Shown piece after piece: positions 2,758 through 36,562 of a DNA stretch of 64,000 nt. Source of the stretch: Candidatus Latescibacterota bacterium (GTDB lineage: Bacteria; Latescibacterota; 4484-107). Under the pieces are notes generated by a model. That model worked only from the letters and a program-made list of their open reading frames with translations, did no database searches and was not told where the DNA came from. The stretch's first letter is position 1, and every line of letters begins with the position of its first letter. The DNA lies in the NCBI GenBank assembly GCA_043804415.1, contig JAZDJA010000184.1, forward strand, positions 7,630 through 71,629, in the 5' to 3' direction. Position numbers and translations under genes: made by a program.

Positions 2758-3781
2758 GTGAAACTTGTCCTGTATGGCGCTTTCCGGCGGCCCTATCTTC
2801 CGGTGCTGCGCGAAGCGCTTGCGACACAATGGGAGATCACCACCGGCGAGAACGACCAGAGCTGGCTGCTGGGCGAGATCGCCGAAGCCGACGCGCTGTT
2901 GGCACAGAAGCTGCCGTTGGAGGCGCGCCCCACGGCTCGGAGATTGAAAGCACTGCTGGTCCCTGGCGCGGGAGTAATCCATTCCGACCCGGCGGAGTTG
3001 CCCGCGGGCTGCGTGCTGGCCAACGTATTCGAACACGAAATCCCGATCGCGGAATACGTGATGACTGCGATCCTCCTGCACGTCACGCAGGCGGTGCCCT
3101 ATATGAGATCGTTCGGCGAGGGCTCTTGGGAAGGCAGCGGACGATTGGGCGGGCAGTTACACGATGAGATCCATGGCAAGACGCTCGGACTTATCGGGTA
3201 CGGCCATATCGGGCAGGCGGTTGCTGCCCGCGCTCGGGCCTTCGGCATGAAGGTGTGCGCGATCTGCGCCCATCCGAGTACGGCAGCACCGGAACCGGCG
3301 GCGTGGGCAGATTTCCTCGGCGGCCCAGCGGATCTGGACCGCGCTCTGGAATCGTCCGACTTCCTGGTGATCGCCTGCCCGCTCACGACCGCGACCGAAG
3401 GCATGATCGGAGAACGGGAGCTTGCCCGCATGCCCACCCACGCCATGATCATCAACGTGGCACGTGCCGAGATCATACAGGAAGCACCCCTGTACGAGGC
3501 CCTGCCGGACGCGCGGCATCGCCGCGTCCGCGCTTGATGCCTGGTACCGCTATCCCGCGCACCTGGGCGAACGGATGCACGGTTCCGCGCTGCCGTTTCA
3601 CGAGTTGGACAACGTTATGGCCACCCCGCATTTTTCCGGATGGACGCACGCCCTGCTCGAACGGCGCGTGCGCAAGATCGCCGCTAACCTGGACCGCCTG
3701 GCCCGGGGCGAGGAACTGGAGCGCGTGGTGCTGCGCGGGACGTGGCGGCCCGAGTCGCAGCCGTCTCCGGCGGGAAGATGA
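2758..3781 (+). pseudogene. D-isomer-specific 2-hydroxyacid dehydrogenase, interrupted by a +1 frameshift near 3500-3515
   Basis: GTG start with an AGGAG RBS; NAD-binding GKTLGLIGYGHIGQAVA motif in frame 1; the C-terminal IAASALDAW...MATPHFSGWT catalytic region continues in frame 2 (ORF 3464..3781). Confidence 0.65.
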
Positions 3782-3789
3782 TTTTCAAA

Positions 3790-3877
3790 GGAATTAAGGC
3801 TTCAGCCTTTCAACGGGAGTGGCATTCTTAGCGAAACACTACCTCCTTCGGAATTAAGGCTTTAGCCTTTCATTGGG
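3790..3877. repeat. two direct copies of a 28-bp motif GGAATTAAGGCTTyAGCCTTTCAwyGGG, each containing the palindrome AAGGCT-N2-AGCCTT
   Basis: copies at 3790-3817 and 3850-3877, about 60 bp apart, in the gap between the dehydrogenase pseudogene and the next BNR gene. Confidence 0.7.
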
Positions 3878-3925
3878 GGTGGGGGCGGGTAAACAACGAA
3901 CCGATTCAGCGACTAGGAGGAAACC

Positions 3926-5161
3926 ATGAGCAAAGACAGTGTCAAACTCACGAATTGCATTCAGACCCTTCCGACGGAGTATGTGATAGAGAGCAATGAC
4001 ACGGATGCCTCCGGGCTCTACCCGTTTTCGCGGCTGATCTCCTCGGTCTCGCCCCACGTGGTCAGACAGGAGAATCCCAAGGGTCCGCGCTACCAGGAAG
4101 GACTGAGCTACACCTTCCTGATCAATTCGGCGAAGTTTCCGGGACTCACCAAACTGGATGATGGGAGGCTGGCACTTACCCTCAGTGGAGACCTCAAATA
4201 TGAATTTGTCAACGAGGGAGACCGGCGCGAAGCACTACTCCTTTTCTCCGACGACGATGGGATCACGTGGACCCAACCCAGGCGGGTCCCGATCCACCGA
4301 AGCATCCCGATCAATCTCGGGGGCGAAAAACTGATGCTCCGAGGCAATGCCGGGCCCGCCCATGCGCACTGCATCAGTAACGATGGGGGCGCGACCTGGG
4401 GAAATGTGGAACCCATTCCCCCTGCTCCCGATGGCCGGGAGGGCTACACCGACCTGGTCCTTCATCCCCTGGTCGAAGGGGACACCGTCACCGCCATCTT
4501 TTACTCCTCAGAGCCCGGCTCCGACGACCAGTATGGCAAGCTCATCACAGACGGCAAACGACCTCCTCTTGCGCACAGTTTCATCAGGCGCTACCACCTC
4601 TCCACGAAAACGTGGGACGACCCGGTATATTTCCCCCTCGAGTGGCGCACGATCGAAGGCATGCTCACCCGCGCCAAAGACGGCAGCTTGGTGGCCGCGT
4701 TTCGCACGGACATGCCGGCCGACGTGACAGCGCCCTCGGATCACTGGGACGGGATCATGACCACCCGATCGACCGACGATGGAAAGACATGGTCCGAGCC
4801 CGCCCGTCACTTCAAGTACGGGTATATGCACACGCACCTGCTCTCCCTCCCGGACGGCCGCATCGTGCTGACCTACGCGGCCCGGATCGGCGAGTTGGAT
4901 GGGAGGAACTACCACGGCATCGAGGCGGTTGTAAGCTCGGATAACGGCGTTACGTGGGACTGGGAACACCGGTTCATTCTCTTCCGCTGGACCGATCAAT
5001 GCACCCACAGTCCGCAGTCCGTGCAGCTTTCAGATGGGAGAATCCTCACCGTGTTTCTGCACGGCAAGAACTTCACCTGGACCGATCGACCCGAGCGTAC
5101 CGTCAAAACCAATCTCTTGTACCTTGGAAACGTCACGGTGGTGATCTGGAATATCACCTGA
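3926..5161 (+). CDS. BNR/Asp-box sialidase-like propeller protein, a distant paralog of the tandem pair at 10965/12355
   Basis: Asp-boxes FSDDDGITWTQP, SNDGGATWG, STDDGKTWSEP, SSDNGVTWDW; strong RBS AGGAGG before ATG 3926; the C-terminal half is roughly half-identical to 10965..12152. Confidence 0.7.
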   Translation: MSKDSVKLTNCIQTLPTEYVIESNDTDASGLYPFSRLISSVSPHVVRQENPKGPRYQEGLSYTFLINSAKFPGLTKLDDGRLALTLSGDLKYEFVNEGDRREALLLFSDDDGITWTQPRRVPIHRSIPINLGGEKLMLRGNAGPAHAHCISNDGGATWGNVEPIPPAPDGREGYTDLVLHPLVEGDTVTAIFYSSEPGSDDQYGKLITDGKRPPLAHSFIRRYHLSTKTWDDPVYFPLEWRTIEGMLTRAKDGSLVAAFRTDMPADVTAPSDHWDGIMTTRSTDDGKTWSEPARHFKYGYMHTHLLSLPDGRIVLTYAARIGELDGRNYHGIEAVVSSDNGVTWDWEHRFILFRWTDQCTHSPQSVQLSDGRILTVFLHGKNFTWTDRPERTVKTNLLYLGNVTVVIWNIT

Positions 5162-5313
5162 GGGCACGGCAGCCACCGCCCATCCACCAAGCCTTGGCAT
5201 GCGGCACACCAGCGATCCGGGAGCGGAGCTTCCCCCACGCAGGCGGGCGGACAGAACGGATGGCGAGGGTACAGACAGTGGTGCAACCGGTAGATTCGAA
5301 AAAGGGAGCAGAG

Positions 5314-6468
5314 ATGAAGATCACGAGGATTACGGCACATCTGATGGGAATCCCCGGACCGGGCGGGCACTCCCCCGCGCGCAACTGGACCTTTGTCAAA
5401 GTGGAAACCGACGAAGGCATCGTGGGGGTCGGCGAAGCAACTACCGAATGGCATGAGCAGGCAGTTGTCGCGATGATCGAGCACCATTTTGCACCCCTGT
5501 TGATCGGTCAGGATCCGACCGGAGTGACGCGTGCATGGCAGCAAATGCAGCGCTTTTTCTGGTGGCGAAACGGTGTGGTGGCCGCAAGTGCCGCCAGTGG
5601 TATCGAGCAGGCTCTGTGGGATATTACCGGCAAAGCATACGGACAGCCGGTATACAAGTTACTCGGGGGCGCCGTAAGAGATCGCGTCAGGGTGTATGCC
5701 CGAAGCGATCTTGGATTGAGCAACTACGTGGAGGAGATCAAGACTGCCAGGGAGGAAGGGATTACGGGGTTCAAGTTTGCGCCCGGCAAGCTCGTGGAGC
5801 CATTCGATGACGAAAAGCAAGTCGATGTTGCGCTTGACTTGGCTCGGGACCTTCGAAAGGCTGGTGGACCCGAATGCGACCTCATGATCGATTGTCACGG
5901 CAACTTCTCTTTGCAGGCGGCACACCGACTGATCGACCGGATCCGGGAACACAAGATGCTGTTTATCGAAGAGCCCACGAATGCGGATACACCGGGCCCA
6001 CTCGTGGCGCTTCGACGCGCCTTTCCAGACCAGCGGATCGCGGCTGGCGAACGGCTGATGACTCGCTGGGGATTTCGCGAGTGGTTGGAGACCGGAGCGG
6101 TGGATGTGATCCAGGCCGACATTTCGCACTGTGGGGGAATTGGCGAATTACTGCGGATTGCCTCTTACGCCGAGATCCACAACGTCCGGGTGGCTCCGCA
6201 CAACCCTTATGGACCTGTGGCTTTGGCGGCCAGCGCCCACGCGTGCGCGGCCATGCCCAATTTTCTGATTTTGGAGTACTGCCGTCACCGGCCCTGGATT
6301 CACGAGGTGGTCAAATTCGGCCCGCAAGTTGCGGAGGGATGCGTCCAGCTCGATGATCGCCCGGGCTTGGGAGTGGAACTGGATTGGGACTATGTGGCCA
6401 GGCACCCCTATCAGCCGCTGGACTATTGGATTTACAGCGATCGAGACAACGCCCTTCCCTGCATCTGA
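5314..6468 (+). CDS. enolase-superfamily sugar-acid dehydratase (mandelate racemase family)
   Basis: VETDEGIVGVGEAT capping-domain motif and barrel domain; RBS GGGAGCAGAG before ATG 5314; paralog of 1429..2646. Confidence 0.8.
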   Translation: MKITRITAHLMGIPGPGGHSPARNWTFVKVETDEGIVGVGEATTEWHEQAVVAMIEHHFAPLLIGQDPTGVTRAWQQMQRFFWWRNGVVAASAASGIEQALWDITGKAYGQPVYKLLGGAVRDRVRVYARSDLGLSNYVEEIKTAREEGITGFKFAPGKLVEPFDDEKQVDVALDLARDLRKAGGPECDLMIDCHGNFSLQAAHRLIDRIREHKMLFIEEPTNADTPGPLVALRRAFPDQRIAAGERLMTRWGFREWLETGAVDVIQADISHCGGIGELLRIASYAEIHNVRVAPHNPYGPVALAASAHACAAMPNFLILEYCRHRPWIHEVVKFGPQVAEGCVQLDDRPGLGVELDWDYVARHPYQPLDYWIYSDRDNALPCI

Positions 6469-6522
6469 GACCGCAAATCGTGGATCACAGGGCTGCGGCA
6501 AAAACCAAAAAGGAGGCACCCC

Positions 6523-7413
6523 ATGCCAGCTGTCAAACCGTACGACCTCAATAAGATCAGGTATTTCAAGTGGGTGGATCATCCGGAATCGATTTCCGTG
6601 GGTCCGGAAGGCGAGGCCTATACCACAGGAACCGGATTCCAGGTGTACCGGCTGGACGTGACGAACCACACCAGCGAGCAATACGCCTCGACCGCCCCGC
6701 GACGCATGCTCGGGCAGGCAGTGGATGCGGATGGAAACCTGTATTGTGCGGACATAGGGCATTATTCTTCTCCCGATATCCTCAGCAAGGTCATCCGCCT
6801 GACCCCGGATGGGAAGGAAAGCGTGTATGCCACTGCGCCAGGCGGCAAAGGTTTTCTATGTGCGAATTATCCTGCGTTCGATCGCAAGGGCAACATGTAT
6901 CTGTCGGACAGCGGGGACTGGTCAGAAGAGATAAACGGGCACATTTACAGAATCCCGCCCGGAGGGGGTGAGGCGCAGCTCTGGTTTCCCGAGCCGGTAT
7001 ACACGCCCAACGCGATCGCTTTGGATGCGGCAGAGGAGTTCCTTTATTTTGTGGACTCATTCGGGAACGGTGTCGCTCGTATTGCCATCAAGAAGGACGG
7101 CTCCGCAGGGGCGCTTGAATATGTAGTATATATGCCCCACCATATTCCGGACGGCATCGCTCTGGATGAGGAGGGAAACATTTGGATCTCCTGTCATCGT
7201 CCCGACGTCATCTACATCCTTGATATCAAGACCAGGCGCCTTGAAGTGTTTGCCGAAGACTGGCGGGGTGAAGCGCTTCGCGCGCCCACGGATGTGGCAT
7301 TTGCGGGGCCCGACCGGGATGTCCTGCTTGTGGCATCCCTTGGCCGCCACGATGTGCATCGCCTTGACCATGTCGGCGTGCGCGGTCTGCGTCTCAACAA
7401 TCCCAAACTATAG
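6523..7413 (+). CDS. SMP-30/gluconolactonase/LRE-family lactonase
   Basis: 296-aa beta-propeller lactonase-like sequence; RBS AAAGGAGG upstream; sits between a dehydratase and a dehydrogenase in a lactone-forming oxidative sugar pathway context. Confidence 0.7.
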   Translation: MPAVKPYDLNKIRYFKWVDHPESISVGPEGEAYTTGTGFQVYRLDVTNHTSEQYASTAPRRMLGQAVDADGNLYCADIGHYSSPDILSKVIRLTPDGKESVYATAPGGKGFLCANYPAFDRKGNMYLSDSGDWSEEINGHIYRIPPGGGEAQLWFPEPVYTPNAIALDAAEEFLYFVDSFGNGVARIAIKKDGSAGALEYVVYMPHHIPDGIALDEEGNIWISCHRPDVIYILDIKTRRLEVFAEDWRGEALRAPTDVAFAGPDRDVLLVASLGRHDVHRLDHVGVRGLRLNNPKL

Positions 7414-7425
7414 GAGATCCCTCTC

Positions 7426-8466
7426 ATGGATGCCCCTAAGCTGCGCTTCGCCATGTTCGGGACGGGGGTTTTCGGTCAGATCTTCGCCCCCTACATCAAC
7501 GAAGTGGCCGAACTCGTCTCCATCTGCGACCCCAGTCCCGAGGCAAGGTCAGCCTTCCGGGAAAAGACAGGTCTCGCGCTTCCGGAATTCGACAACGCGG
7601 AACGGTTACTGGCGGAAGTGGACATCGATGCCGTGGCACTGACCGGTCCGAACCACACCCATAAGCCGCTCGCACTCGCGGCCGCCCGTGCAGGCAAACA
7701 CGTTTACTGCGAGAAGACCATGGCCCCGACCGTTCCGAACTGCTGGGAGATGGTCCGGGCCTGCGAGGCCGCCGGAGTACGTCTGATGGTGGGCCACAAA
7801 CGCCGGATCAGACCTCCCTGGGCGCGGATGATCCAACTCTGCGACCAGCTCGGACCTGTGTATGCCATAAGTTCGTGCAAATATCACGACTCCAGCGGCT
7901 ACAATCCACAGGGCTGGTGGTGGCGCGATGCCGAGTGCGGGGGAACACTGCCGTTGGTGGGCGTACATACGATTGACTGGATGCGAGCCATGTGCGGCGA
8001 TGTGGAGAGCGTCAGCGCCCTGGCCGCTCCGCAGATTAACTCGCATTTCGATTACCCGGACACCATGCACGTTTCGCTTCGGTTCCGATCAGGTGCGGTA
8101 GGTGCGCTGTCCGTTTCGGCCTCGTATCCTATCCTCCAGTACCGCGAGGCCTGCAGTTCGGATGTCATCACCCGCGAGGGAGGGATGCGCATCCAGACCT
8201 ACCTCGATCATATTGACCTTTCCTATCGGCGCCGGGACGACTCCGAGACCCATTACGAAAGATTTGATGATCTGGGTCACGCTCACGCTTTCCGGAAAGA
8301 GCTGGGAGACTTCGTCCGATGGGTGACAGAAGGAGCAGAGCCCTGTCTGACATGGCGGGAAGGACTGCGGTGCGTCGAAGTCATGGAGGCTGCTCATCAT
8401 TATTCAGCAAGACAAAACGGGCGCTGGGTTGATCTTCCACTATACCCGGAGCTGGAGGCGGCATGA
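7426..8466 (+). CDS. Gfo/Idh/MocA-family NAD(P)-dependent sugar dehydrogenase
   Basis: N-terminal Rossmann motif FAMFGTGVFGQ..., EKTMAPT motif; stop overlaps the next start (ATGA at 8463-8466). Confidence 0.8.
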   Translation: MDAPKLRFAMFGTGVFGQIFAPYINEVAELVSICDPSPEARSAFREKTGLALPEFDNAERLLAEVDIDAVALTGPNHTHKPLALAAARAGKHVYCEKTMAPTVPNCWEMVRACEAAGVRLMVGHKRRIRPPWARMIQLCDQLGPVYAISSCKYHDSSGYNPQGWWWRDAECGGTLPLVGVHTIDWMRAMCGDVESVSALAAPQINSHFDYPDTMHVSLRFRSGAVGALSVSASYPILQYREACSSDVITREGGMRIQTYLDHIDLSYRRRDDSETHYERFDDLGHAHAFRKELGDFVRWVTEGAEPCLTWREGLRCVEVMEAAHHYSARQNGRWVDLPLYPELEAA

Positions 8467-10607
8467 ACGCAAAGAGGCATGTAGGAGTTGTCGTGGGAAG
8501 TGCGGCCCCGCAAGTCGAGCAGTACGCCGCCAGTCAGCTGTGCGGGTATCTGGAGAAACTTTTTGACATCCAGACGGAGCCGAGCACGTCCATCCCTCCG
8601 GATTCCGATTATCTCATTCTGGTGGGTAATCCTTCGACGAATCCCGCAGTGGAGGAAGCAACCGGGCGTAACCCCTTCCCAAAGATCGGTGATCAGGGCC
8701 TGGTGCTGCGGCACACGCTCCATCAAGAGTGCCCGGCCCTGATTGTCGGGGGCGGGAGCGCCCGCGCAACAATGTGGGCTGTTTACGAGTTGGTGGAACG
8801 GTGGGGGGTACGGTATCTGCAGCATCGCGACGTTCTCCCCGAGAATCGGGAACCGTTCGAGTTGCCTGAGCTTGATGTGGTGATCGAACCGACCCTCCCG
8901 GTTCGCTATGGGTGGGGGATCATAGACTTCGCCGGCGGATACGAATCTTGGGGTATGCGCGACTACCGCCCCGTGATCGACCAACTGGCAAAGCTCAAGA
9001 TCAACCGGCTTTTGATCGTTGTCTTTGCGTGGCAGCCGTTCCTGGATTACGAGGTCAGTGGCATCAAGCGTGAATCCGCGTGGCTTTGGTACGACTACCA
9101 CTACCCGATCACGGCGGACATGGTGGGGAGAGAATTGTTCGGGGACGCCCGGGAGTTCTGGAATCCCGACTTGCCGATGGATGCCGGCTACCAGGAATTT
9201 ACTGCGGCGGGCGAACAGCTGGTGCATAACCTGATAGACTACGCCCACCAAAGGGGCCTCGAATGCGTACTCCAGGCCAACTTACTTGAATTCCCCCCTG
9301 AGTTCAAACCGCTGCTGAAAGGCGCGCAGAAGGTTCAGCAACTGGGGGAACTGACCATTGTGCCGGGTGCGGATACAGACCTTGACGACCCCGGCCTCGT
9401 CGAACTGGGTTCCGCTGTTTTGCGGGCTACGGTGAACACCTATCCGGAAGCGGACTTCGTGGCGCTGTGGATGCAGGAGCATCGCCAGTGGACGGAAAAG
9501 ACCTATGAGGGTGCCTGGAGTGCACTGGACGCCAAATACGACCTCAGCCAGATCCGAGCCCTGGACGATGTGCTTGCCAGGGCTGGCAATCGTACCGCTC
9601 ATACCGGGGGGGCCGAACGGGCTGTGCGCGAAGTCAAAGGGGATATCACCGCGCTTTACTTCTACGATCGGCTCCTGACGGATCTGGACGTACTGAACGG
9701 CACGCGCCGTCCGGACATGAAATTCATCTACGGCGCCCTGGCCGAAGAGATGTATCCCCTGCTCCCCCGGTTGATACCGCAAGGAGGGGAGACGTTGAAC
9801 TTTATTGACTATACCCCCTCTCGCGTCCTCAATCGGCGCGAAGTCCTCAAGGATCTTCCCTGTCGGGAGATCCCGTGCAGTCTTATCTACACGCTGGACG
9901 ACGACAACATCGGCGTCGTACCGCAGCTGACGACCCCATCTCTGCACGAACTGACCCGTGACCTCATCAAATATGGGTGCGCGGGGTTTGAAATGCGGCA
10001 GCGGTATCTGGGCGATCATGATCCTGCCGTAGCCTATCTGGCCAAGGTGGCTTGGGACGCCAGCGCAACACCGGACGAGGTATACAGAGACCAGATTCGG
10101 GCGGTTTGCGGAGAAGGGTGCGTGGAGGAGATGCTGACGGCTTTCCACGAGGTGGAGGCAGTAACCGTTAACCTGGAATGGAAAAACCTGAGTTTCTCGT
10201 TCCCTGTGCCGGGGATGATGATGAAGTTCTGGAAGCCGGGGCCCATGTCCGCCGACCTGATCGAAGACCGAGCCGGCTATCGGCGAGCCCTGGAGGCAGC
10301 CCGACAAGCGCAGGAGAAGGCAACGACGTCCGGTCGTCCTTACGTGGACTACTGGGTAGGACGGCTGCAGTTTGCGGCAGGCTATCTGGACGCAGTCGAA
10401 GCCGTTACCCTTGCCGCCACAGCCGAAGCGGCGAACAACCCGGGCCAGACGCTGGAGTACACACAAGCTGCACTCGGGATGGCTCGTCAATCCATAGAAG
10501 CCTATGCCCGCGTCGCACAGGATCAAACTGACCGCGGCACGATCGCGGTGCTGAACGAATACGTCTTTCGTCCTTTGAAGGCCAAAGTGGCTGAGTTGAG
10601 GAAGTAG
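8463..10607 (+). CDS. putative glycoside hydrolase (GH20b-like N-terminal domain plus TIM-barrel; DUF4838-like), cytoplasmic
   Basis: 714-aa ORF translationally coupled to the upstream dehydrogenase; domain architecture recognised only by pattern, family uncertain. Confidence 0.45.
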   Translation: MNAKRHVGVVVGSAAPQVEQYAASQLCGYLEKLFDIQTEPSTSIPPDSDYLILVGNPSTNPAVEEATGRNPFPKIGDQGLVLRHTLHQECPALIVGGGSARATMWAVYELVERWGVRYLQHRDVLPENREPFELPELDVVIEPTLPVRYGWGIIDFAGGYESWGMRDYRPVIDQLAKLKINRLLIVVFAWQPFLDYEVSGIKRESAWLWYDYHYPITADMVGRELFGDAREFWNPDLPMDAGYQEFTAAGEQLVHNLIDYAHQRGLECVLQANLLEFPPEFKPLLKGAQKVQQLGELTIVPGADTDLDDPGLVELGSAVLRATVNTYPEADFVALWMQEHRQWTEKTYEGAWSALDAKYDLSQIRALDDVLARAGNRTAHTGGAERAVREVKGDITALYFYDRLLTDLDVLNGTRRPDMKFIYGALAEEMYPLLPRLIPQGGETLNFIDYTPSRVLNRREVLKDLPCREIPCSLIYTLDDDNIGVVPQLTTPSLHELTRDLIKYGCAGFEMRQRYLGDHDPAVAYLAKVAWDASATPDEVYRDQIRAVCGEGCVEEMLTAFHEVEAVTVNLEWKNLSFSFPVPGMMMKFWKPGPMSADLIEDRAGYRRALEAARQAQEKATTSGRPYVDYWVGRLQFAAGYLDAVEAVTLAATAEAANNPGQTLEYTQAALGMARQSIEAYARVAQDQTDRGTIAVLNEYVFRPLKAKVAELRK

Positions 10608-10964: not shown

Positions 10965-12152
10965 ATGACAACCGAGACCCCATCCGTACCCAACATGCAC
11001 CAGATTCCCCGCGAGCGGCTGCAACGGGACGAGCTGACCAACGAGAGTGGGAACTACCCGCGCGACTGGGTCACGTCGCCGTTGCAGGCCACGGTTATCA
11101 GGCAGAACACCCCCGCAGGGGCCAGTTACAGAGAAGCGATCGGGTACACGTTCCTGCTGTATTCGATGAAGTTCCCATCCGTCGTGCGAATGGACGATGG
11201 CCGGCTGCTGATGAATGCCAGTTACGAGGACAAGTCCGACGACAGACCGTGGGTGCTCCTCTTCTCAGACGATGAGGGCAGGTCGTGGTGTCAGCCCGCC
11301 CCGAGCCAGCTTGGGCGGTCCACTCTCATCAACCTGGGTGGCAATCGGCTCGTGTCGATAGCGTCTGCTGTGGCGCTGCGGTTCAGCGAGGACGGCGGGA
11401 AGTCCTGGAGTGAGCCGGAGACGATCCCGCCCATGTCGGACGGACGGCATTGGTGCAGCGATGTACCTTACTCTCATCTGGTGGAGGGTCAGAAGGTCAC
11501 CTTTGTGGGGTCCGTGGACCTGCATCCGGGTTACCAGCGTTGGGAGGAAAGCGACACCATCTGGACTCGCGGGGTTATGCGCGCTTACCATCTCGACACG
11601 CACGAATGGGATGAGCCTTACCTGTTCCCGATGGATTGGGGGCTCTGCGAGGGTTCCATTACGCGGGCGACGAATGGGGATCTGGTCGCAGTGTTCCGCA
11701 CTCAGCTTATGGATGGGATACGGATCACTACCGACCACTGGATGGGGCTGGCGACCACACGGTCAGTCGACGACGGCAAGACCTGGGAGAAGCCGGTGCA
11801 GGCATTCCTCTATGGGCATCACCACATGAACCTGAGGACGCTGCCGGACGGCCGACTTCTCATGACCTATGCCTCCCGGATCGGGGAGCTTGAGGGCATG
11901 CCCTACCACGGCATCGAGGCGGTGCTGAGCCACGACGACGGCAAGACGTGGGACTGGAATCGCCGTTACATACTCTTCAGAGAGCTGAGCGACCAACTTA
12001 CGCACAGCCCCGGTTCTGTAATGCTCTCCGACGGCAGCATCCTCACGACCTTCCTGCATACCAAGGGCTTCACTTGGGACGACGGAACCGTAGGCCCAAA
12101 GAGCCAGAAGACGATCGGGAATGTCTCGGCCGTGATCTGGAAGCCCTGGTAG
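10965..12152 (+). CDS. BNR/Asp-box sialidase-like propeller protein (tandem copy A)
   Basis: Asp-boxes FSDDEGRSW, SEDGGKSWSEP, SVDDGKTWEKP, SHDDGKTWDW; RBS GGAGAGAGG; about 88% aa identity to copy B. Confidence 0.75.
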   Translation: MTTETPSVPNMHQIPRERLQRDELTNESGNYPRDWVTSPLQATVIRQNTPAGASYREAIGYTFLLYSMKFPSVVRMDDGRLLMNASYEDKSDDRPWVLLFSDDEGRSWCQPAPSQLGRSTLINLGGNRLVSIASAVALRFSEDGGKSWSEPETIPPMSDGRHWCSDVPYSHLVEGQKVTFVGSVDLHPGYQRWEESDTIWTRGVMRAYHLDTHEWDEPYLFPMDWGLCEGSITRATNGDLVAVFRTQLMDGIRITTDHWMGLATTRSVDDGKTWEKPVQAFLYGHHHMNLRTLPDGRLLMTYASRIGELEGMPYHGIEAVLSHDDGKTWDWNRRYILFRELSDQLTHSPGSVMLSDGSILTTFLHTKGFTWDDGTVGPKSQKTIGNVSAVIWKPW

Positions 12153-12354: not shown

Positions 12355-13560
12355 ATGACAACTGAGACCCCATCCGTACCCAACATGCACGAGATTCCCC
12401 GCGAGCGGCTACAACGGGACGAGCTGACCGACGACCGAGGAAACTACCCGAACGACTGGGTCACGTCCCCGCTGCAAGCCACGGTTATCAGGCAGAACAC
12501 CCTCACAGGGGCCGGTTACAAGGAGGCGATCGGGTACACGTTCCTGCTGTATTCGATGAAGTTCCCGTCAGTCGTGCGCATGGACGATGGCCGACTGCTG
12601 ATGAATGCCAGTTACGAGGCTCAGTCCGACGAGAGACCGTGGGTGCTCCTCTTCTCAGACGATGAGGGCAGGTCGTGGAGTCAACCCGTTCCGAGCCAGC
12701 TTGGGCGATGCACGCTTACGAACCTTGGCGGCAACCGGCTCATGTCGCTTGGAACCATGCCCACCTCGGCGGCTCTGTTCGCGCTTCGGTTCAGCGCAGA
12801 CGGCGGGAAATCCTGGAGCGATCCGGAGGCGGCCCCTCCCATTTCGGACGGACGACACTGGGGCACCGATGTGCCATACTCTCATCTGGTGGAAGGCCAA
12901 AAGGTCACCTTTGTCGGGGCCGTGGACGAACATCCGGGCTACGAGCACTGGGAGGAAAGCAACAGCATCTTTACCCGTGGGATTATCCGCACTTACCATC
13001 TCGACACGCACGAGTGGGATGATCCCTATCTGTTCCCGATGGATTGGGGGCTCTCCGAGGCTTCCGTGACGCGGGCGAAGAATGGGGATCTGGTCGCAGT
13101 GTTCCGCACACAGCTCATGGATGGGATACGGATAACTACCGACCACTGGATGGGGCTGGCGACCACACGGTCCACCGACGACGGCAAGACCTGGGAGAAA
13201 CCGGTGCAGGCCTTCCTCTATGGGCATCACCACATGAACCTGAGGGCGCTGCCGGACGGACGGCTTCTCATGACCTATGCCTCTCGGATCGGGGAGCTTG
13301 AGGGCATGCCCTACCACGGCATCGAGGCGGTGGTGAGCCACGACGACGGTAAAACATGGGACTGGAATCGCCGTTACATACTCTTTAGAGAGCTGAGCGA
13401 CCAGATCATGCACAGTCCCGGCTCCGTGATGCTCTCCGACGGTAGTATTTTCACGACCTTCATGCACACCAAGGGCTACACGTGGGACGACGGCACCGTC
13501 GGCCCGAGGAGCCAGAAGACGATCGGGAATGTCTCGGCGGTGATCTGGAAGCCGTGGTAG
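12355..13560 (+). CDS. BNR/Asp-box sialidase-like propeller protein (tandem copy B)
   Basis: near-identical to 10965..12152, including the duplicated 5' leader and 3' tail. Confidence 0.75.
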   Translation: MTTETPSVPNMHEIPRERLQRDELTDDRGNYPNDWVTSPLQATVIRQNTLTGAGYKEAIGYTFLLYSMKFPSVVRMDDGRLLMNASYEAQSDERPWVLLFSDDEGRSWSQPVPSQLGRCTLTNLGGNRLMSLGTMPTSAALFALRFSADGGKSWSDPEAAPPISDGRHWGTDVPYSHLVEGQKVTFVGAVDEHPGYEHWEESNSIFTRGIIRTYHLDTHEWDDPYLFPMDWGLSEASVTRAKNGDLVAVFRTQLMDGIRITTDHWMGLATTRSTDDGKTWEKPVQAFLYGHHHMNLRALPDGRLLMTYASRIGELEGMPYHGIEAVVSHDDGKTWDWNRRYILFRELSDQIMHSPGSVMLSDGSIFTTFMHTKGYTWDDGTVGPRSQKTIGNVSAVIWKPW

Positions 13561-13729: not shown

Positions 13730-14914
13730 ATGAAACATTCAGAACACCCCATGGTGATCAGTACTTTCAACGATGCCCTCGATTGGTGCTGGTCCTATGG
13801 CAACTGGGGCAGCTCCGGAGTGGAGCGGCTGATGGAACGCTACCAGCAGGCCAATATCCAGCGGGTCTATTGGCGCGCGAACCAGGGGAGCCTTTGCTGG
13901 TGGCCGAGCAAGGTCGGCACTCCCTACCACGGCGTCCACTTGCGCCGTCCGCCGGATTTCGTCGGACGCGGTCAGGATTGGTATGCCGAAAGGGATGCAG
14001 GATTCGACACTCGTGCTTTCGACCAACTGGCTGTTGCTTGCAAGAAGGCCCCCGAATATGGCATCGATCTTTGGGTTTACTGGACCCCCTTCCTGGATGA
14101 TGACACCGGCGACGGATGGGCCGGCGATTGGGAATCGGCGCACCCGGAATGGTGGCGTGTGTTTCGCAACAAAGTGGTGTCAAATACCAACATGAGTTTT
14201 GCTTTCCCCGAGGTGATGGCCCACAAGCTGGCCCTGATGAAGGAACTCCTTCAGTACGATCTCAAAGGGATCCTCCTGGATTGCGTCCGGCAGCATTGTT
14301 TCCTCCTTGAGGAGGACGGCGCGGTTGTAGACGAGGATCTGGCCTACCTCGGCGGCTATGAGGGACCGATCGTAAACGCGTTCCAGGAGAAGACCGGCAA
14401 AGATCCCTTCGGGCTGCCCAATGCGGACGAAGAGTGGATTCAGTTCCGAGCGGATTACAATACGGAGTTCGTGCGCAGACTGCGTACCATCCTTCGCGAA
14501 GCGAAGCCGGAGGTCAAACTGGGCGCCATGGTGCGGGCTAAAGGCGCCAAATCGGGAAAGCGCATCCACCAGGGGAACGCCCTTCGGGAGATGCTGATCG
14601 ACCTTCCGACATGGTCCAAGGAGGGCTTGATCGACACCTTGCTGCAGGATTCTTACGCTCCCCCGGCCACAAGCGAGCAGCTGGTGGAACAACTCAATGT
14701 CTCGCGGTCTCAGGTGGACGCGCAGAAAATCGCGGTCGGTGTGGAAATGGCGCTGTTTGGAGAATGGGACCTCCACACCTTGGCTGCGGCCATGAAGGGA
14801 CCTGCTGCAGCCGGTGCCCGGGAATTTGCCTTCTATCAGGATACTTGTTTTGAGGATCTGAGCCTTCGACAGAACATCAATGCATGGAGAGAACTCGGCA
14901 AACTCGTAAAGTGA
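13730..14914 (+). CDS. putative glycoside-hydrolase-like TIM-barrel protein (GHL10-like), paralog of 15081..16391
   Basis: 394-aa ORF with an excellent RBS AAAAGGAGG; shares RVYWRA / FAFPEV / ILLD motifs with the downstream paralog. Confidence 0.5.
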   Translation: MKHSEHPMVISTFNDALDWCWSYGNWGSSGVERLMERYQQANIQRVYWRANQGSLCWWPSKVGTPYHGVHLRRPPDFVGRGQDWYAERDAGFDTRAFDQLAVACKKAPEYGIDLWVYWTPFLDDDTGDGWAGDWESAHPEWWRVFRNKVVSNTNMSFAFPEVMAHKLALMKELLQYDLKGILLDCVRQHCFLLEEDGAVVDEDLAYLGGYEGPIVNAFQEKTGKDPFGLPNADEEWIQFRADYNTEFVRRLRTILREAKPEVKLGAMVRAKGAKSGKRIHQGNALREMLIDLPTWSKEGLIDTLLQDSYAPPATSEQLVEQLNVSRSQVDAQKIAVGVEMALFGEWDLHTLAAAMKGPAAAGAREFAFYQDTCFEDLSLRQNINAWRELGKLVK

Positions 14915-15009
14915 GGATCGCCGTTTTCGCCCCTCTTGGGAGCGCCCGTCATCCGGGCGTGCCGTCAGGCACGATTCAGTTTAGTGCGGCAGCATGCAGA
15001 GTCCTCATG

Positions 15010-15035
15010 CCTGATCCCTGATGCCTGATCCCTGC
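15010..15035. repeat. tandem CCTGATN heptamers (3.5 copies) about 50 bp upstream of gene 15081
   Basis: cctgatc cctgatg cctgatc cctgc; the same heptamer array is found at 29065-29099. Confidence 0.7.
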
Positions 15036-15080
15036 ATTCCAGCTCCTTAGTACTCACAAACACAGAAGAAGGAAGAGACG

Positions 15081-16391
15081 ATGACAGACGGATCGAAACG
15101 CGCAATGATTCTCTCCGCCCCGCTGACGCATTCGGACTGGATGATCCACGCCGATGCCCCGGACTGGGGACCGGAGGGCGTTCGCACGATGCTCGATCAC
15201 TGCCGGGCATGTGGCTGGTCGCGAATCTACTGGCGGGTCTTCGACGCCGGCATGGCCCTGTATGCCAGCCGCCTCCTGGAACCGATGAAGTATGCCACCA
15301 GTCCGCAGCCAAACTGCCTGACCACGGGCGAACTGGCCTCCCAGGCCCCGCCGGATCTGGTGGCCCGGGCGATGAAACTCGACTATCACGGATTTGACAC
15401 GCTGGCTGCGGCAGTGCGGATCGGTCACGAACTGGGGCTGGAGATTCACGCCTGGTTGTCCATCAATGAAGACGATCACGGGTGGGGCTGGCCCAGCCGC
15501 TTCACGCAAGCGCATCCGGAGTGTCGCTGGGTGCGCCGGGATGGGCGCGCCTATCATTCGCAACTGAGCTTTGGGTTTCCCGAGGTGCGGGAATACAAAC
15601 TGGATCTGATCCGGGAGATGCTGGCCTACGAAGTGGATGGCATCTTCCTGGACTGGATTCGCACGGGCGATATCCGCGACAACCCCCGGAACGATCCACA
15701 GGGCGTGGCCAACTATGGATATGAAGCGCCGCTGGTAGAAAGCTTCCGCTCGCGTTACGGACTGGACCCCCACGAGGTGGAGAACGGGGATGAGCGCTGG
15801 GTTCGGTGCCGCGCTGAGCCGATCACCGATTTCATGCGGACGGTTCGAAATGCGCTCGATCAACACCCTCGCCGGATAGTATTGGCAGGGATGGTGCATC
15901 ACTGCTGGGCATATCGGGGACTTCAGGAAGAGGGCTTCATCGATGGTGCGCTGCGGGGCGTCCTGTGTGATATTCGCACGTGGGCGCGCGAGGGACTGGT
16001 GGACGAGCTGGTGGTGGGCGGCTATTATATGAAAGACGGCACTCCGGAATCCGGATACCGCTGGCTGGAGGAGGAGACCGAGGGCCGGGTGGCGCTGTGG
16101 CTGTATGGCTGGGTTCCGGAGAGCACCGAGGACTTCGAACGGGATCTGACTCTGGCGCGCAGGCTGGGGGCCCGGCAGTTATTGTTCTGGGAGGCGGACT
16201 ACATTGACATGCGGCCCGAACCGCAGCGCGAGCAGATCATGACGGATGCGGGAATCAACCTGCTCCGGATGAAGAAGCTAGAGGAGTTACTGGGAGGAGC
16301 GCTTCCAAGGCTCTGCGTGAAAGAACCAGTTTGCCGAACAGTTTCAAGCCCGGACAAAAAGGGTAATACTATGGAACCCATTGAACACTGA
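15081..16391 (+). CDS. putative glycoside-hydrolase-like TIM-barrel protein (GHL10-like), paralog of 13730..14914
   Basis: 436-aa ORF; conserved RIYWRV, FGFPEV and FLDW motifs shared with 13730..14914. Confidence 0.5.
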   Translation: MTDGSKRAMILSAPLTHSDWMIHADAPDWGPEGVRTMLDHCRACGWSRIYWRVFDAGMALYASRLLEPMKYATSPQPNCLTTGELASQAPPDLVARAMKLDYHGFDTLAAAVRIGHELGLEIHAWLSINEDDHGWGWPSRFTQAHPECRWVRRDGRAYHSQLSFGFPEVREYKLDLIREMLAYEVDGIFLDWIRTGDIRDNPRNDPQGVANYGYEAPLVESFRSRYGLDPHEVENGDERWVRCRAEPITDFMRTVRNALDQHPRRIVLAGMVHHCWAYRGLQEEGFIDGALRGVLCDIRTWAREGLVDELVVGGYYMKDGTPESGYRWLEEETEGRVALWLYGWVPESTEDFERDLTLARRLGARQLLFWEADYIDMRPEPQREQIMTDAGINLLRMKKLEELLGGALPRLCVKEPVCRTVSSPDKKGNTMEPIEH

Positions 16392-17641: not shown

Positions 17642-17909
17642 AAGTTGGCAAGTGGTCAGTGGGTGAGTAGTGAGTGGTGTATGCAGCAACGAGCTTGGAA
17701 GAATCCCTAACGCACCGGAAAGCGTACCATGAAGAAACTGCTCGAGAGTATTGCACACTTTGGAGCTGCGTTCTGCGCAGATGCGATGAATTTCTCGGCT
17801 TATCGAAACCGTTTCCTGTCACCGATCAGTGACACGGGCGTGCCATCTGCAGGGTCACCGCAAAAAAACAACCGGCCAATGGACACCCCCATACCTGAAG
17901 GAGTGTAAG

Positions 17910-19700
17910 ATGAGCAACGCGCAGGACCGATCCATACAGGCACATGACGTAACCATCAAGGAGATTTACCACCCGAAGGTACGTCCGGGGTATGCGTGCT
18001 GGACCAGCCTGTGGCGGGCGCCAACCGGGGAATTGCTCCTGGCATTCGCAGAGAAGCGGCGCGCTCCCAATCCCTCTTACCGACCCATTCCGCTGGATTT
18101 CTATGAATCCATGGCCCTGCCGATCAAATACCAGGCCTCCTTCTGCAACGGGTCACCGGATCTGTTAGATGAAAGCGTGATCATGCGTTCTAGGGACGAA
18201 GGGGCCTCGTGGGAGGAGATCGGAAGAAGCGGCACAGGCGGACTGATGAATGTCTTTGGCTATGCTTCCTTGCCCGACGGCACCATCCTCCGGGGGATCG
18301 ACACGGCGTATCTGTGTTTTTCTCAGGACGACGTTCCGGTTACCGGCATTGAACAATCCACCGATGGGGGAAATACATGGGTCCCAAAGTCCAAACTGCT
18401 GGAACCGGACTTCTGCGGGTGCATCTACCGGCTCAAACGCCTGCATGACGGCACCCTGGTGGCCTTGTGCATCTACTCCGTGCCCTTTGGGCCGGGAAAG
18501 GAGTCCAAACAGCGGGGCGGCAGCAAACCGAACATGGTCAGTACGAACATGGCAGGGCTCTGGACCTCCGGGGATGACGGGGCAACCTGGACTGGACCCA
18601 CGATCGTCCTGCCCGGGATCTCCGCGCCCGAACCGGATTTTGCCGAATTGCCCTCAGGGGATTTGCTCATCCTCAACTCCTCCGTACAGCACGGACCCCA
18701 GATGCGTCAGAAGATCCATCGCAGGAAAAGCGGCTTGCTGCCTGCCGCCATGTACCGTGTGGTGGACGGCACGGTACCGGAAACCGTCTGTGCCACTGGA
18801 ACCGGTCTGCTGGTGGGTGCCAGCAGAGGGGGCACGTATGTCTGCTGCAATGATGAGGGCGCCACATGGAAGGAGATCTCGAGCATGCCGAGGTGTGAGT
18901 ATCAACCCTTCATGATCGAGGGAATCGAGGACCGACTCCTGTGCGCATGGCATAAGCATGGAGACTGCGCATTTGGAGAACACCACCAGTTTGTGGGCAT
19001 GCACGCTTTCTCTCTGGATGACTCCAAACTTCCGGAGGCCACGCAACTGGTGCTCACTCGAGACCAGGATCGGGCGAAAACGCACTACACTAACTCCTAC
19101 ACGGCGCACCTTTCCTCAGGTGGGAAGGACCTGCCGAACCGGGAAATCCGTTTCCACACCCAGATGCGTTACCGGGACACCTACGACCTCGCCCCTCCCG
19201 CACCGGAGTCCAGAGAAATCGTCAAAGTGACGGACGGACACGGCAAGGCCCGGTTTCAGATGAGCGAGCTCTACCCGGATATAGCACGCGAGCTCAATAT
19301 CCACCAAGCCTTCGAAACCAAGGCCTTCTTCGCTCCCGGGGAGGGGGAACCCTTTGGTGCGGCGGAGAGTATGCAATATCAATCTTACGCTGTCACCCCC
19401 GAAATCGGAACGCCCAACAGCTGCCCTCTGTACGTGGCCGGGTGCAAGCTTTTTGTGACACCCGAAGTGATTCAAGCAGTTCCGGAAATTAAGGAACTAC
19501 TTCAGAAGATCGGTACCCCCAGAACAATCGACGCGCAAGAAAGCAAGCGAGTTCTGGGTTTATCCGATGCGCGCTTCGAAGCGGTCGTGGACTATCTGGC
19601 CCAGGAAAACGTGCTGGACCGAAAACCGGATGGGGACCGATGGCGCTATGATCTTTCCGGAGGATCGAGCGAAATCGAGATTCCGGATGACTTCGTATAG
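17910..19700 (+). CDS. BNR/Asp-box sialidase-like propeller protein with a ~200-aa C-terminal extension of unknown function
   Basis: Asp-boxes SRDEGASWEEIG, STDGGNTWVPKS, SGDDGATWTGP, CNDEGATWKEI; RBS AAGGAG before ATG 17910. Confidence 0.7.
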   Translation: MSNAQDRSIQAHDVTIKEIYHPKVRPGYACWTSLWRAPTGELLLAFAEKRRAPNPSYRPIPLDFYESMALPIKYQASFCNGSPDLLDESVIMRSRDEGASWEEIGRSGTGGLMNVFGYASLPDGTILRGIDTAYLCFSQDDVPVTGIEQSTDGGNTWVPKSKLLEPDFCGCIYRLKRLHDGTLVALCIYSVPFGPGKESKQRGGSKPNMVSTNMAGLWTSGDDGATWTGPTIVLPGISAPEPDFAELPSGDLLILNSSVQHGPQMRQKIHRRKSGLLPAAMYRVVDGTVPETVCATGTGLLVGASRGGTYVCCNDEGATWKEISSMPRCEYQPFMIEGIEDRLLCAWHKHGDCAFGEHHQFVGMHAFSLDDSKLPEATQLVLTRDQDRAKTHYTNSYTAHLSSGGKDLPNREIRFHTQMRYRDTYDLAPPAPESREIVKVTDGHGKARFQMSELYPDIARELNIHQAFETKAFFAPGEGEPFGAAESMQYQSYAVTPEIGTPNSCPLYVAGCKLFVTPEVIQAVPEIKELLQKIGTPRTIDAQESKRVLGLSDARFEAVVDYLAQENVLDRKPDGDRWRYDLSGGSSEIEIPDDFV

Positions 19701-20986: not shown

Positions 20987-22114
20987 ATGAGAGAAAAAGA
21001 GCGCTTTTTGGATACGCTGCAGTTCAAACCGGTGGATCGGGTTCCCTTTATGGAATTGGGCGCATGGAACCAGACCATCGCCCGATGGGTGGGGGAAGGA
21101 TTGCCGGAGTCGGCTGCCAACTTCCGTTTCATGGAGGGCAATGCCTACTTCGGGCTGGAGGCGTACGAGAGCGCTCCCATCGATGGGGTTGGGCCCCATC
21201 CCCCCTTTGAGGAAAGAACGCTGTCCGAGGATGACCGTTATATCAAGTTCACCGATACCATGGGAAGAACCCGCCTGGCGCTCAAGGAGGGAACGGTAGA
21301 CGGCCAGCGAACCAGCATGGACAGCTATGTGGACTTCCCGGTCAAGAACAGACGGGACTTTCTAAACATGAAGAAGCGCTACGAGGAGAGTGAGTCCGTC
21401 CGGTACCCGAAAGACTGGGAGGAGATCAAAGAAAGGCTGAACAAATCCACCAGGCCGATCACCCTCCTCAATCCGCTGGATGGCACCTTCGGCTGCTACA
21501 GCATGCTCAGAAACTGGATGGGCACGGAGAACCTTTCCTATCTGTTTTACGACGACCGACCGCTGATCATGGAATGCCTGGATTTTCTGACCGATTTCTT
21601 CATTCGGGTCGTGGAGAAAGCCGTCACAGAAGTTCCTTTTGACTTCTACATGATCCACGAAGATATGGCAGGAAAGGGCGGGCCCCTCGTGTCCCCCCAG
21701 CTTTTCAGGGAGATATTCACGCCCTTTTATAGACGCCTCATCGACTCCCTGAAGTCGCACGGCGTAAAGCTCATACTCGTGGACACGGATGGCGATTTCG
21801 AAGCGCTGATCCCTGCCTTTCTCGAGGCCGGTGTGGACGGATTCAGTCCCATCGAACGGGCATCTAATATGGACCCCATCAGATTGCGGAAACAGTATGG
21901 CAACGCGTTTTCTATGCTCGGAGGCATCGACAAGCGGGTCCTGGCAAAGGGGAAAAAGAAAATAACAGAGGAGATCGAAAGAAACGTGCTCCCGCTCATC
22001 GAAAAAGGCGGGTATATTCCGATGGTGGATCACGCCGTACCGCCGGACGTTTCGCTGGATCATTTCAAGTACTACCTGGAATTGAAATGGAAGGCCATTG
22101 ATCATGCGTGGTGA
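20987..22114 (+). CDS. uroporphyrinogen decarboxylase (URO-D) superfamily protein (MtaA/CmuA-like fold), inside a glycan operon
   Basis: 375 aa; RBS AAGGAGG; N-terminal ...LQFKPVDRVPFMELGAW... and central ...YMIHEDMAGKGGPLVSPQLFRE... are typical of URO-D-family proteins. Confidence 0.7.
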   Translation: MREKERFLDTLQFKPVDRVPFMELGAWNQTIARWVGEGLPESAANFRFMEGNAYFGLEAYESAPIDGVGPHPPFEERTLSEDDRYIKFTDTMGRTRLALKEGTVDGQRTSMDSYVDFPVKNRRDFLNMKKRYEESESVRYPKDWEEIKERLNKSTRPITLLNPLDGTFGCYSMLRNWMGTENLSYLFYDDRPLIMECLDFLTDFFIRVVEKAVTEVPFDFYMIHEDMAGKGGPLVSPQLFREIFTPFYRRLIDSLKSHGVKLILVDTDGDFEALIPAFLEAGVDGFSPIERASNMDPIRLRKQYGNAFSMLGGIDKRVLAKGKKKITEEIERNVLPLIEKGGYIPMVDHAVPPDVSLDHFKYYLELKWKAIDHAW

Positions 22115-24661: not shown

Positions 24662-24799
24662 CCTCTCGTACGGCATATGCGAAAGAGAGATCTCTCTCCT
24701 TTCGCGGCGCCCCCCCCCATGGTTTCGGGTAATGCCCCGTCGCTTGGGGAGCCCGCCGGAGGAAACAGAACCGTCACCAGAACAACCTGACCCAAGGAT

Positions 24800-25400: not shown

Positions 25401-25412
25401 TCAAAAACCTTC

Positions 25413-26656: not shown

Positions 26657-26838
26657 AACAAGTTTATGTTTTCTTGTGCTACAAGAGCGAAACTCAGGGG
26701 GTGTAGCCTTTCGATCACCGCGAGACGGAAACAGCACGAAGTGCCCATCCTATGAAAACGACATCCTCTATGATGGGAAGAGCAACCATGACCCAGGGGG
26801 CACGCGGATCGAAGGGACCCCTTATCCAAAAGGAGCGC

Positions 26839-28032: not shown

Positions 28033-28115
28033 CGGAAGGTACCTAGCACAAAACCACAAACTGTCCCCTGATATTTCCATACGGGAAGCGATCCGGGGGC
28101 AAGAAGGAGCGATCC

Positions 28116-36508: not shown

Positions 36509-36562
36509 CGGGAGATGCTCGTTTCCTTCTTTCCGATGCTATCGTTTCGATTGGAGAAACCC

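Follow-up and report, generated by a model that had tools for sequence, protein, structure and literature searches.

We analyzed a 64,000-nucleotide stretch of DNA from a Candidatus Latescibacterota bacterium (contig JAZDJA010000184.1 of assembly GCA_043804415.1; hereafter the window, whose numbering is used throughout) and find that four adjacent genes at 5314-10607 would encode a non-phosphorylative oxidative sugar route together with a GH115-like hydrolase. The four genes are predicted to specify a DgoD-type sugar-acid dehydratase, an aldonolactonase, an aldose 1-dehydrogenase, and a 714-aa protein of glycosidase-like fold. We infer every step of the route, and place the probability of this reading at about 0.62. 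An original prediction, made from the letters of the DNA, had drawn a block of five genes beginning with a sialidase-like BNR hydrolase. Judged by comparison with other genomes, the conserved unit is the four-gene block at 5314-10607 and not the five-gene block, and the hydrolase stably linked to the oxidative module is the 714-aa protein and not the BNR protein.

The five genes at 3926-10607 all lie on the + strand. They encode BNRb, a BNR_2 protein of 411 aa (3926-5161; Pfam BNR_2, 51.7 bits), the DgoD-type enolase-superfamily dehydratase of 384 aa (5314-6468; Pfam MR_MLE_N/C, 87.9/202.4 bits), an SGL/SMP-30 putative aldonolactonase of 296 aa (6523-7413), a Gfo/Idh/MocA putative aldose 1-dehydrogenase of 346 aa (7426-8466; Pfam GFO_IDH_MocA, 85.5 bits), and the 714-aa protein (8463-10607), whose GH115-like fold comes from a predicted structure. 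The open reading frame listing and translations reproduce the co-directional order and coordinates first proposed, with intergenic gaps of 152, 54, and 12 bp, none above 152 bp, followed by a 4-bp ATGA overlap between the dehydrogenase gene and the 714-aa gene. Pfam upholds the domain calls for four of the five proteins; the fifth, called a large glycoside hydrolase, has no sequence-family support and only a predicted fold in its favor. A purine-rich Shine-Dalgarno sequence stands ahead of every start in the five-gene block. The open frame of the dehydratase reaches back to a GTG at 4954, and we place its start at ATG 5314, where both the register of the Pfam domains and a GGGAG ribosome-binding site locate it. 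Since the + strand holds all genes from 60 to about 39877, co-directionality by itself is weak evidence; it is the conservation of gene order in other loci that puts the arrangement at 3926-10607 above chance.

That conservation was measured in a metagenome scan anchored on the lactonase, in which the recovered loci were searched with the window proteins, giving 54 module loci. The exact order dehydratase-lactonase-dehydrogenase occurs in 12 metagenome loci, at identities of 61-73%, 58-71%, and 53-62%, respectively. With partners counted on the same strand, and among the 44 loci flanked sufficiently on both sides, the lactonase gene has the dehydrogenase gene adjacent in 23, the dehydratase gene in 22, both in 13, and at least one of the two in 32. 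Genes of the 714-aa family occur in 9 of the 54 module loci, and other repeated neighbors are MFS transporters, SDR genes (11 loci), DHDPS-family genes (5 loci), and BNR_2 genes (5 loci). The closest relative of the module, locus L147, keeps the same order, with 84% identity for the dehydratase, 86% for the lactonase, 78% for the dehydrogenase, and 69% for the 714-aa protein; upstream of it lie GH36 and GHL6/GH42-like genes and, on the opposite strand, a BNRb-like fragment, with no intact BNR gene. The module is frequent in marine, sponge-associated, and soil metagenomes, on contigs of Planctomycetota, Poribacteria, Acidobacteriota, and Latescibacterota. The trio of dehydrogenase, lactonase, and dehydratase, originally proposed to form a pathway, thus emerges as a widely conserved module. 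As a separate observation, two loci (L063 and L064; ENA ERZ25072076 and ERZ25072670) carry a NAD-dependent epimerase/SDR-type gene in place of the Gfo/Idh/MocA dehydrogenase, and their modules are flanked by GH31, DHDPS, PhyH, and adh_short genes, a setting reminiscent of sulfosugar Entner-Doudoroff loci.

The catalytic set of the dehydratase comprises D193-x-H195, E219, E246, D269, H296, and E321, and the best match of the enzyme in the PDB is 3rr1, a putative D-galactonate dehydratase. D193, E219, and E246 align with the metal ligands of 3rr1 at the ends of strands 3, 4, and 5, and the acid/base residues align as well, namely the H296/D269 dyad, H195 of the D-x-H motif, and E321 of strand 8. 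The spacing of the set is almost that of residues 185, 258, 285, and 310 of E. coli DgoD. The original prediction had named these active-site residues beforehand as the point on which it could be refuted, and they prove to be a full DgoD-type set, not that of a racemase. Assignment of the gene as a mandelate racemase or a muconate cycloisomerase was rejected because the DgoD motif set is present. Orthologs in the other module loci share 61-84% identity with the enzyme. We therefore predict a DgoD-type sugar-acid dehydratase, one that is not demonstrably specific for D-galactonate.

The window encodes a second predicted DgoD-type dehydratase (1429-2646, + strand; Pfam and NCBIfam matches), which is 34% identical to the first by pairwise alignment and keeps the DgoD set, with E-x-H replacing D-x-H in the first metal-ligand motif. 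A BNR_2 gene directly precedes each of the two dehydratase paralogs, with a gap of 22 bp between the genes at 60-1406 and 1429-2646 and of 152 bp between those at 3926-5161 and 5314-6468. Two such pairs could arise by chance, given six BNR_2 genes in 21 kb.

The SGL score of the lactonase, 69.7 bits, compares with a gathering cut-off of 26.3, and its family, conserved at 58-95% identity, is named gluconolactonase by the sources. E22, N115, N163, and D210 are invariant across the 32 aligned sequences, and in a mapping of motifs, not of structure, their spacing resembles that of the SMP-30 metal ligands, presumably E18, N103, N154, and D204. The protein is thus a putative aldonolactonase that appears to keep the SMP-30 metal ligands. 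The dehydrogenase matches three Pfam GFO domains, with an N-terminal Rossmann fold and a C-terminal alpha/beta domain, and has a Rossmann motif of the GxGxxG type, GTGVFG, at residues 12-17. Its best PDB match, at 96 bits, is the C1-oxidizing Caulobacter aldose-aldose oxidoreductase 5a02, and we propose oxidation at C1 because of this closest relative and the constant presence of a lactonase partner. It would accordingly be an NAD(P)-dependent sugar dehydrogenase and, putatively, an aldose 1-dehydrogenase.

A different role for this enzyme would be oxidative glycoside cleavage, in which the enzyme, acting as a glycoside 3-dehydrogenase, would prime the intact glycoside for elimination in the manner of DgpA or BT2158-type systems. 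Its PDB matches do include the DgpA C-glycoside oxidoreductases (69 bits) and a glucuronide 3-dehydrogenase (31 bits), and AP_endonuc_2 (xylose-isomerase-like) genes lie near three related loci (L005, L007, and L065); however, the best match oxidizes C1, the NCBIfam models of glycoside and disaccharide 3-dehydrogenases reach only 25-28 bits where their cut-offs are 650-750, and Pfam finds no AP_endonuc_2 gene in the island of genes around the module. Moreover, a lactonase and a sugar-acid dehydratase as invariant partners make sense only after C1 oxidation. We regard this role as very improbable, and oxidation of a free aldose at C1 as the better account of the dehydrogenase.

The fourth gene of the module encodes the 714-aa protein, for which searches of Pfam, NCBIfam, and PDB sequences return no match. 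It is 100% identical to an NCBI protein from a Candidatus Latescibacterota metagenome-assembled genome, on a 75-kb contig; exact-sequence look-ups with this protein and with BNRb recovered no contig. Its AlphaFold2 model (predicted local distance difference test, pLDDT, 93.5) consists of an N-terminal alpha/beta domain, a TIM barrel, and a helical bundle. Foldseek ranks GH115 first (E = 2.8e-16), then GH138 and GH67, and after these GH84, GH20, and GH89; the matches to GH115, GH138, and GH67 have E values of 1e-13 to 3e-16, template modeling (TM) scores of 0.46-0.57, and identities of 10-13%. A profile of the family gives one weak collinear match, to the GH115 enzyme AxyAgu115A (E = 0.012), at the boundary of the N-terminal domain, and homologs of the protein give a weak match to PF03648, GH67-N. 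The family is large: among 1.84 billion representatives, 1296 clusters belong to it at E<=1e-3. The proposal of a putative glycoside hydrolase thus holds for the fold, for which GH115, GH138, and GH67 are nearest, and not for a Pfam family. The three-domain layout of the model is common to the GH115, GH67, and GH138 alpha-glucuronidases and alpha-galacturonidases, its best Foldseek matches; unlike the GH115 and GH67 enzymes, the 714-aa protein lacks both a match to a Pfam catalytic domain and a signal peptide, and it forms a family of its own of about 1300 clusters.

Two genes farther along the window may supply transport and cleavage. One, at 26752-28032 on the + strand, encodes an MFS transporter (Pfam MFS_1, 125 bits), probably an importer; the other, at 28116-28982 on the same strand, encodes a probable HpcH/HpaI class II aldolase (Pfam HpcH_HpaI, 107.9 bits). 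The best PDB matches of the aldolase are 2-dehydro-3-deoxyglucarate/galactarate aldolases, at 121 (GarL) and 118 bits, followed by HpaI at 110 and YfaU at 98. In the JGI contig of one relative (the P0254 context), genes for an HpcH aldolase, an MFS transporter, a dehydratase, a dehydrogenase, and a lactonase form a compact cluster in that order, next to a divergent BNR-like gene, and because of this cluster the MFS/HpcH pair at 26752-28982 gains support as the source of the transport and cleavage steps. The idea that a distant HpcH aldolase completes the route is likewise backed by this relative. MFS genes flank the module there and in four further loci (L091, L103, L121, and L144).

Taken together, the proposed route would begin with import of a small glycoside or oligosaccharide, probably via the MFS transporter at 26752. 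The 714-aa hydrolase, aided by BNR_2 and GHL10 paralogs encoded nearby, would break it down in the cytoplasm, and the dehydrogenase would then oxidize C1 of the aldose set free, giving a lactone. The lactonase would open the lactone, the dehydratase would convert the resulting aldonate to a 2-keto-3-deoxy acid, and the HpcH aldolase (28116) would cleave that acid to pyruvate and an aldehyde, all without phosphorylation.

Several observations weigh against this reading. The dehydratase scores 293.3 bits with the NCBIfam galactonate dehydratase model PRK14017, below the equivalog cut-off of 311, and shares only 39% identity with annotated dgoD genes. In the dehydrogenase the EKP motif reads EKT (C-E-K-T at residues 95-98), so that the lysine is kept and the proline is not, and the D-x-x-x-H region lacks the usual aspartate. 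The glycosidase assignment of the 714-aa protein stands at the level of a modeled fold with 10-13% identity. The aldolase and transporter genes lie 16-18 kb from the module, and many module loci have an SDR gene (11) or a DHDPS-family gene (5) instead of HpcH, from which we conclude that the end of the pathway varies between lineages. Finally, a promoter and terminator scan gave no signal above shuffled expectation, so the transcription unit is without such boundaries.

With respect to the substrate, the DgoD-like dehydratase favors a D-galacto-configured sugar such as D-galactose, L-arabinose, or a galactose modified at C6, and together with the GH36 and GH42-like neighbors of the L147 module it points to the D-galacto configuration. 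The uronidase-like fold of the 714-aa protein, the GarL-like match of the aldolase, and the arginine-rich site of BNRb described below point to an acidic sugar. Routes that close with an aldolase and without phosphorylation typically serve sugars whose terminal carbon cannot be phosphorylated.

An acidic substrate could also be handled by a uronic-acid route, in which the GH115-like protein would release an alpha-linked uronic acid that the dehydrogenase converts to an aldarolactone, the lactonase to an aldarate, and the enolase-superfamily dehydratase to 5-keto-4-deoxyglucarate; a GarL-like HpcH aldolase would then yield pyruvate and tartronate semialdehyde, the latter reduced by a 2-hydroxyacid dehydrogenase. 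Each of the three fold families nearest to the 714-aa protein is one of alpha-uronidases, the top two PDB matches of the HpcH aldolase (121 and 118 bits) act on 2-dehydro-3-deoxyglucarate or -galactarate, and the gene at 2758 is glyoxylate/hydroxypyruvate-reductase-like. In 5 loci the module is accompanied by genes of the DHDPS family, to which KdgD belongs, and the arginine-rich invariant set of the BNRb family would suit a carboxylate. The dehydratase itself argues the other way, since its 293 bits with the galactonate model compare with 132 for the NCBIfam talarate/galactarate model and 35 for the glucarate model. To our knowledge, the uronate dehydrogenases characterized in bacteria belong to the SDR enzymes and not to the Gfo/Idh/MocA proteins, which also counts against such a route, as do the small margin of GarL over HpaI and YfaU and the frameshift in the 2-hydroxyacid dehydrogenase gene. 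A uronic-acid route is therefore unlikely, and an aldonate route through a 2-keto-3-deoxy acid is the one we prefer.

BNRb, the first gene product of the five-gene block, is modeled by AlphaFold2 as a six-bladed beta-propeller (pLDDT 92) with four Asp-boxes, at residues 108-115, 151-158, 282-289, and 337-344. Its best Foldseek matches are Dfer_1899 (5hx0) and GH33 sialidases, at TM 0.55-0.59 and identities of 11-18%. Phmmer and profile searches match it to sialidases at the level of single blades and out of register, without collinear GH33 homology. R47, E244, R260, R320, and H361 are invariant in the family alignment. We mapped the sialidase catalytic positions onto BNRb in two ways, by blade topology and by a transitive alignment via its paralog BNRf, whose alignment with the C-terminal blades of GH33 structures is collinear. 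Both mappings, neither of them a superposition, place the sialidase glutamate at E244, the second arginine at R260, and the third at R320, all invariant, and put the nucleophilic tyrosine position at the invariant H361-S362-P363. By blade topology, again without superposition, the invariant R47, R260, and R320 are placed like the arginine triad. BNRb thus appears to be a sialidase-fold protein whose nucleophilic tyrosine is replaced by His-Ser-Pro, and the family as a whole, sialidase-like in fold, probably lacks the tyrosine nucleophile. Because this tyrosine appears to be replaced, BNRb should not be called a sialidase; of the description of BNRb as a sialidase-like BNR hydrolase, the fold survives, and a collinear sequence match and a tyrosine at the mapped position do not.

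GH33 exo-sialidases have in common with BNRb the six-bladed propeller, the four Asp-boxes, and, as far as the mappings go, the topological positions of the glutamate and arginines; unlike them, BNRb is predicted to be cytoplasmic, appears to have His-Ser-Pro at the tyrosine position, reaches TM scores of only 0.55-0.59, and belongs to an island without a sialic-acid lyase or epimerase. Dfer_1899 of Dyadobacter fermentans (PDB 5hx0), the best structural match and a collinear profile match to the BNRb family, is a protein without an assigned function and thus uninformative on activity. A true sialic-acid locus was considered and rejected on the grounds that the island has no lyase or epimerase and BNRb neither collinear GH33 homology nor a tyrosine at the mapped nucleophile position.

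A rival reading of BNRb is that it is merely juxtaposed to the module, one of several scattered propeller paralogs with no functional tie, with the 152-bp spacer carrying the module's own promoter. The L147 relative keeps the four-gene module with no intact BNR gene; conversely, the closest relative of BNRb (91% identity, in locus L001) lies in the order BNRa-BNRb-unknown-GHL10b, with BNRa-BNRb and GHL10 kept and no pathway gene nearby. With the BNRb family as anchor, 43 genome loci were examined; pathway genes occur in 3, and the other 40 have none, the neighbors being mostly planctomycete DUF1501/PSCyt genes. The 152-bp gap is also the largest in the block. Against juxtaposition, six independent loci (L004, L075, L086, L103, L128, and L144) have a BNR_2 gene within the module or next to it, the window itself has two separate BNR-dehydratase pairs (60/1429 and 3926/5314), and no terminator-like site was found between 5161 and 5314 in the scan described above. 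The order in L004 is dehydrogenase-lactonase-unknown-BNRb homolog, all in one direction, and in L103, L128, and L144 a BNR_2 gene stands between the lactonase and dehydrogenase genes and is followed by an MFS gene, which in L103 and L144 overlaps the dehydrogenase gene by 4 bp; the BNR_2 proteins of these three loci carry signal peptides.

The family of the fourth module gene is, in addition, fused to BNRb-type domains in four proteins and in both orders, with the BNR domain N-terminal in P0239 and P0370 and C-terminal in P0147 and P0380. The added region of another family member, P0362, weakly matches GHL10 (26.5 bits, under the Pfam cut-off of 27.9), and GHL10 adjoins BNRb in L001 and a 714-BNR fusion gene in L007. 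Because of these fusions and shared loci we treat the hydrolase families of the island (BNR_2, 714-aa, and GHL10) as one functional set; on this comparison of loci, it is the 714-aa gene that ties the set to the oxidative module. Simple juxtaposition is thus improbable, and the predicted link between BNRb and the module, although variable and indirect, is real. BNRb is a predicted accessory member of the hydrolase set that is placed upstream here, and it may or may not be co-transcribed with the module. The pairing of a BNR hydrolase with the pathway, as originally put, is not the conserved one, given L147, L001, and the 3 of 43 anchored loci; what stands is a looser association through the six loci and the fusions.

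The spacers around BNRb offer one candidate signal. Two tandem copies of the 23-bp element GGAATTAAGGCTTYAGCCTTTCA, 60 bp apart, occupy 3786-3880 upstream of BNRb, each with a hairpin core AAGGCT-TY-AGCCTT. The pattern is found in the 64-kb window at 3786-3880 alone, with 0.41 matches expected by chance, and the BNRb ortholog in L001 has a related copy upstream (about 2255-2290), with changes that preserve pairing. The pair may be a terminator, an insulator, or an operator. When the 152-bp spacer is aligned with the sequence ahead of the dehydratase gene in L147, no conserved element appears.

More broadly, the first 31 kb of the window form, by predicted gene content, an island of glycan-related genes. 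It encodes six BNR_2 proteins (starts at 60, 3926, 10965, 12355, 16439, and 19704), two GHL10 proteins, and one GH140-like (Apiosidase-like) protein, together with two enolase-superfamily dehydratases and one each of a D-2-hydroxyacid dehydrogenase and SMP-30-type, Gfo/Idh/MocA, RraA-like, MFS, and HpcH proteins. All of the following genes lie on the + strand. BNRa, a divergent BNR_2 paralog (60-1406; Pfam BNR_2, 59.3 bits), lies 22 bp upstream of the second dehydratase gene. BNRc (10965-12152) and BNRd (12355-13560) are tandem duplicates by Pfam and blastp, 85.5% identical to each other and of the same subfamily as BNRb (44%), which points to a recent paralog expansion inside the island. Two GHL10 genes follow at 13730-16391 (Pfam GHL10, 44.6 and 40.7 bits), and the RraA-like gene lies at 23990-24661. 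The genes that the original prediction had placed elsewhere in the island, namely the second dehydratase, the RraA-like gene, and HpcH, are all present. No island protein has a signal-peptide-like N-terminus, the maximum 12-residue Kyte-Doolittle value within the first 45 residues being <=1.49, where exported BNR relatives reach 2.2-2.8 by the same measure. The island proteins accordingly look cytoplasmic, in agreement with the earlier proposal.

Some genes of the island are broken. The D-2-hydroxyacid dehydrogenase gene (2758-3781, + strand) has a frameshift near 3505-3525, with its C-terminal part in another frame and its Pfam 2-Hacid_dh_C match ending at profile position 144 of 178, and is either a pseudogene or an assembly error in the metagenome-assembled genome. 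The URO-D-like gene that ends at 26473 has the C-terminal half alone, an N-terminal-like stretch lies at about 25400-25850 in another frame, and the region 24700-25350 contains no open reading frame; this gene, within 24661-26473, is probably decayed or mis-assembled. URO-D-like genes lie in the island at 20987-22114 and 25856-26473 and beyond it at 36515-37651, and such genes recur beside the lactonase-dehydrogenase module or the 714-BNR fusion gene on unrelated contigs (L007, L107, L125, and L135). A 623-aa protein (17829-19700) has no Pfam match, is weakly propeller-like, and is weakly similar to the BNR paralogs, and searches of Pfam and PDB sequences with a 679-aa protein (29132-31171) gave no match. 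A tRNA gene at 59754-59825 is the sole Rfam match within the window.

The module as a pathway type is unsurprising; its interest lies in its partner hydrolases, which belong to families without a described function, of about 1300 clusters for the 714-aa protein and several hundred for BNRb. Assignment of a substrate would provide an annotation for thousands of genes in glycan-degrading phyla that are poorly known, and could add one or two glycoside hydrolase families. A bolder and rather doubtful proposal is that the 714-aa protein and the His-for-Tyr BNR_2 proteins are two new families of cytoplasmic glycoside hydrolases that cooperate, in keeping with their fusions, on an imported acidic or C6-modified glycoside, with the module as a route dedicated to a sugar for which these phyla have no assigned bacterial pathway, such as a 6-deoxy- or 6-sulfo-D-galacto sugar. 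In a more radical variant of this proposal, the sialidase-fold proteins would bind the pathway's own 3-deoxy-2-ulosonic acid intermediates instead of glycosides.

The order of steps has well-known precedents. The De Ley-Doudoroff route for D-galactose, the Weimberg and Dahms routes for pentoses, and the L-arabinose route of Azospirillum pass through an aldose dehydrogenase, a lactonase, and an aldonate dehydratase to a 2-keto-3-deoxy acid; Azospirillum uses Gfo/Idh/MocA aldose dehydrogenases and SMP-30 lactonases, and Haloferax an enolase-superfamily dehydratase. The window module has this step order in common with them, with a dehydratase only 39% identical to annotated DgoD. To the best of our knowledge, no characterized pathway brings together precisely this trio of families, an HpcH aldolase, and a GH115-like hydrolase of the cytoplasm, and our literature searches found no paper describing this gene combination. 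For the Latescibacteria, earlier genomic work predicted routes of the phosphorylative and microcompartment kinds, and it reported no homolog of GH33 (PMC4454575). The nearest biochemical parallel is sulfofucose degradation in Paracoccus wurundjeri, where four enzymes (SfcH, SfcD, SfcF, and SfcE), a dehydrogenase among them and the others PF08450, PF13378/PF02746, and PF03328 proteins, were shown to form a non-phosphorylative route of the Entner-Doudoroff type that yields pyruvate and an aldehyde (PMC12421959). The reaction logic is the same, and three of the four families match those of the window, namely the lactonase, the DgoD-like dehydratase, and the HpcH aldolase. In contrast, the sulfofucolytic pathway employs an SDR dehydrogenase (PF13561) and ABC uptake, has no glycosidase, and is followed by sulfolactaldehyde-processing genes (PMC12421959); Pfam scans of the island reveal no sulfolactate genes, and the window instead has a Gfo/Idh/MocA dehydrogenase, an MFS transporter, and an overlapping, translationally coupled gene for a GH115-like hydrolase. 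The pathway type encoded here is thus a well-known one, to which two uncharacterized hydrolase-like families are attached.

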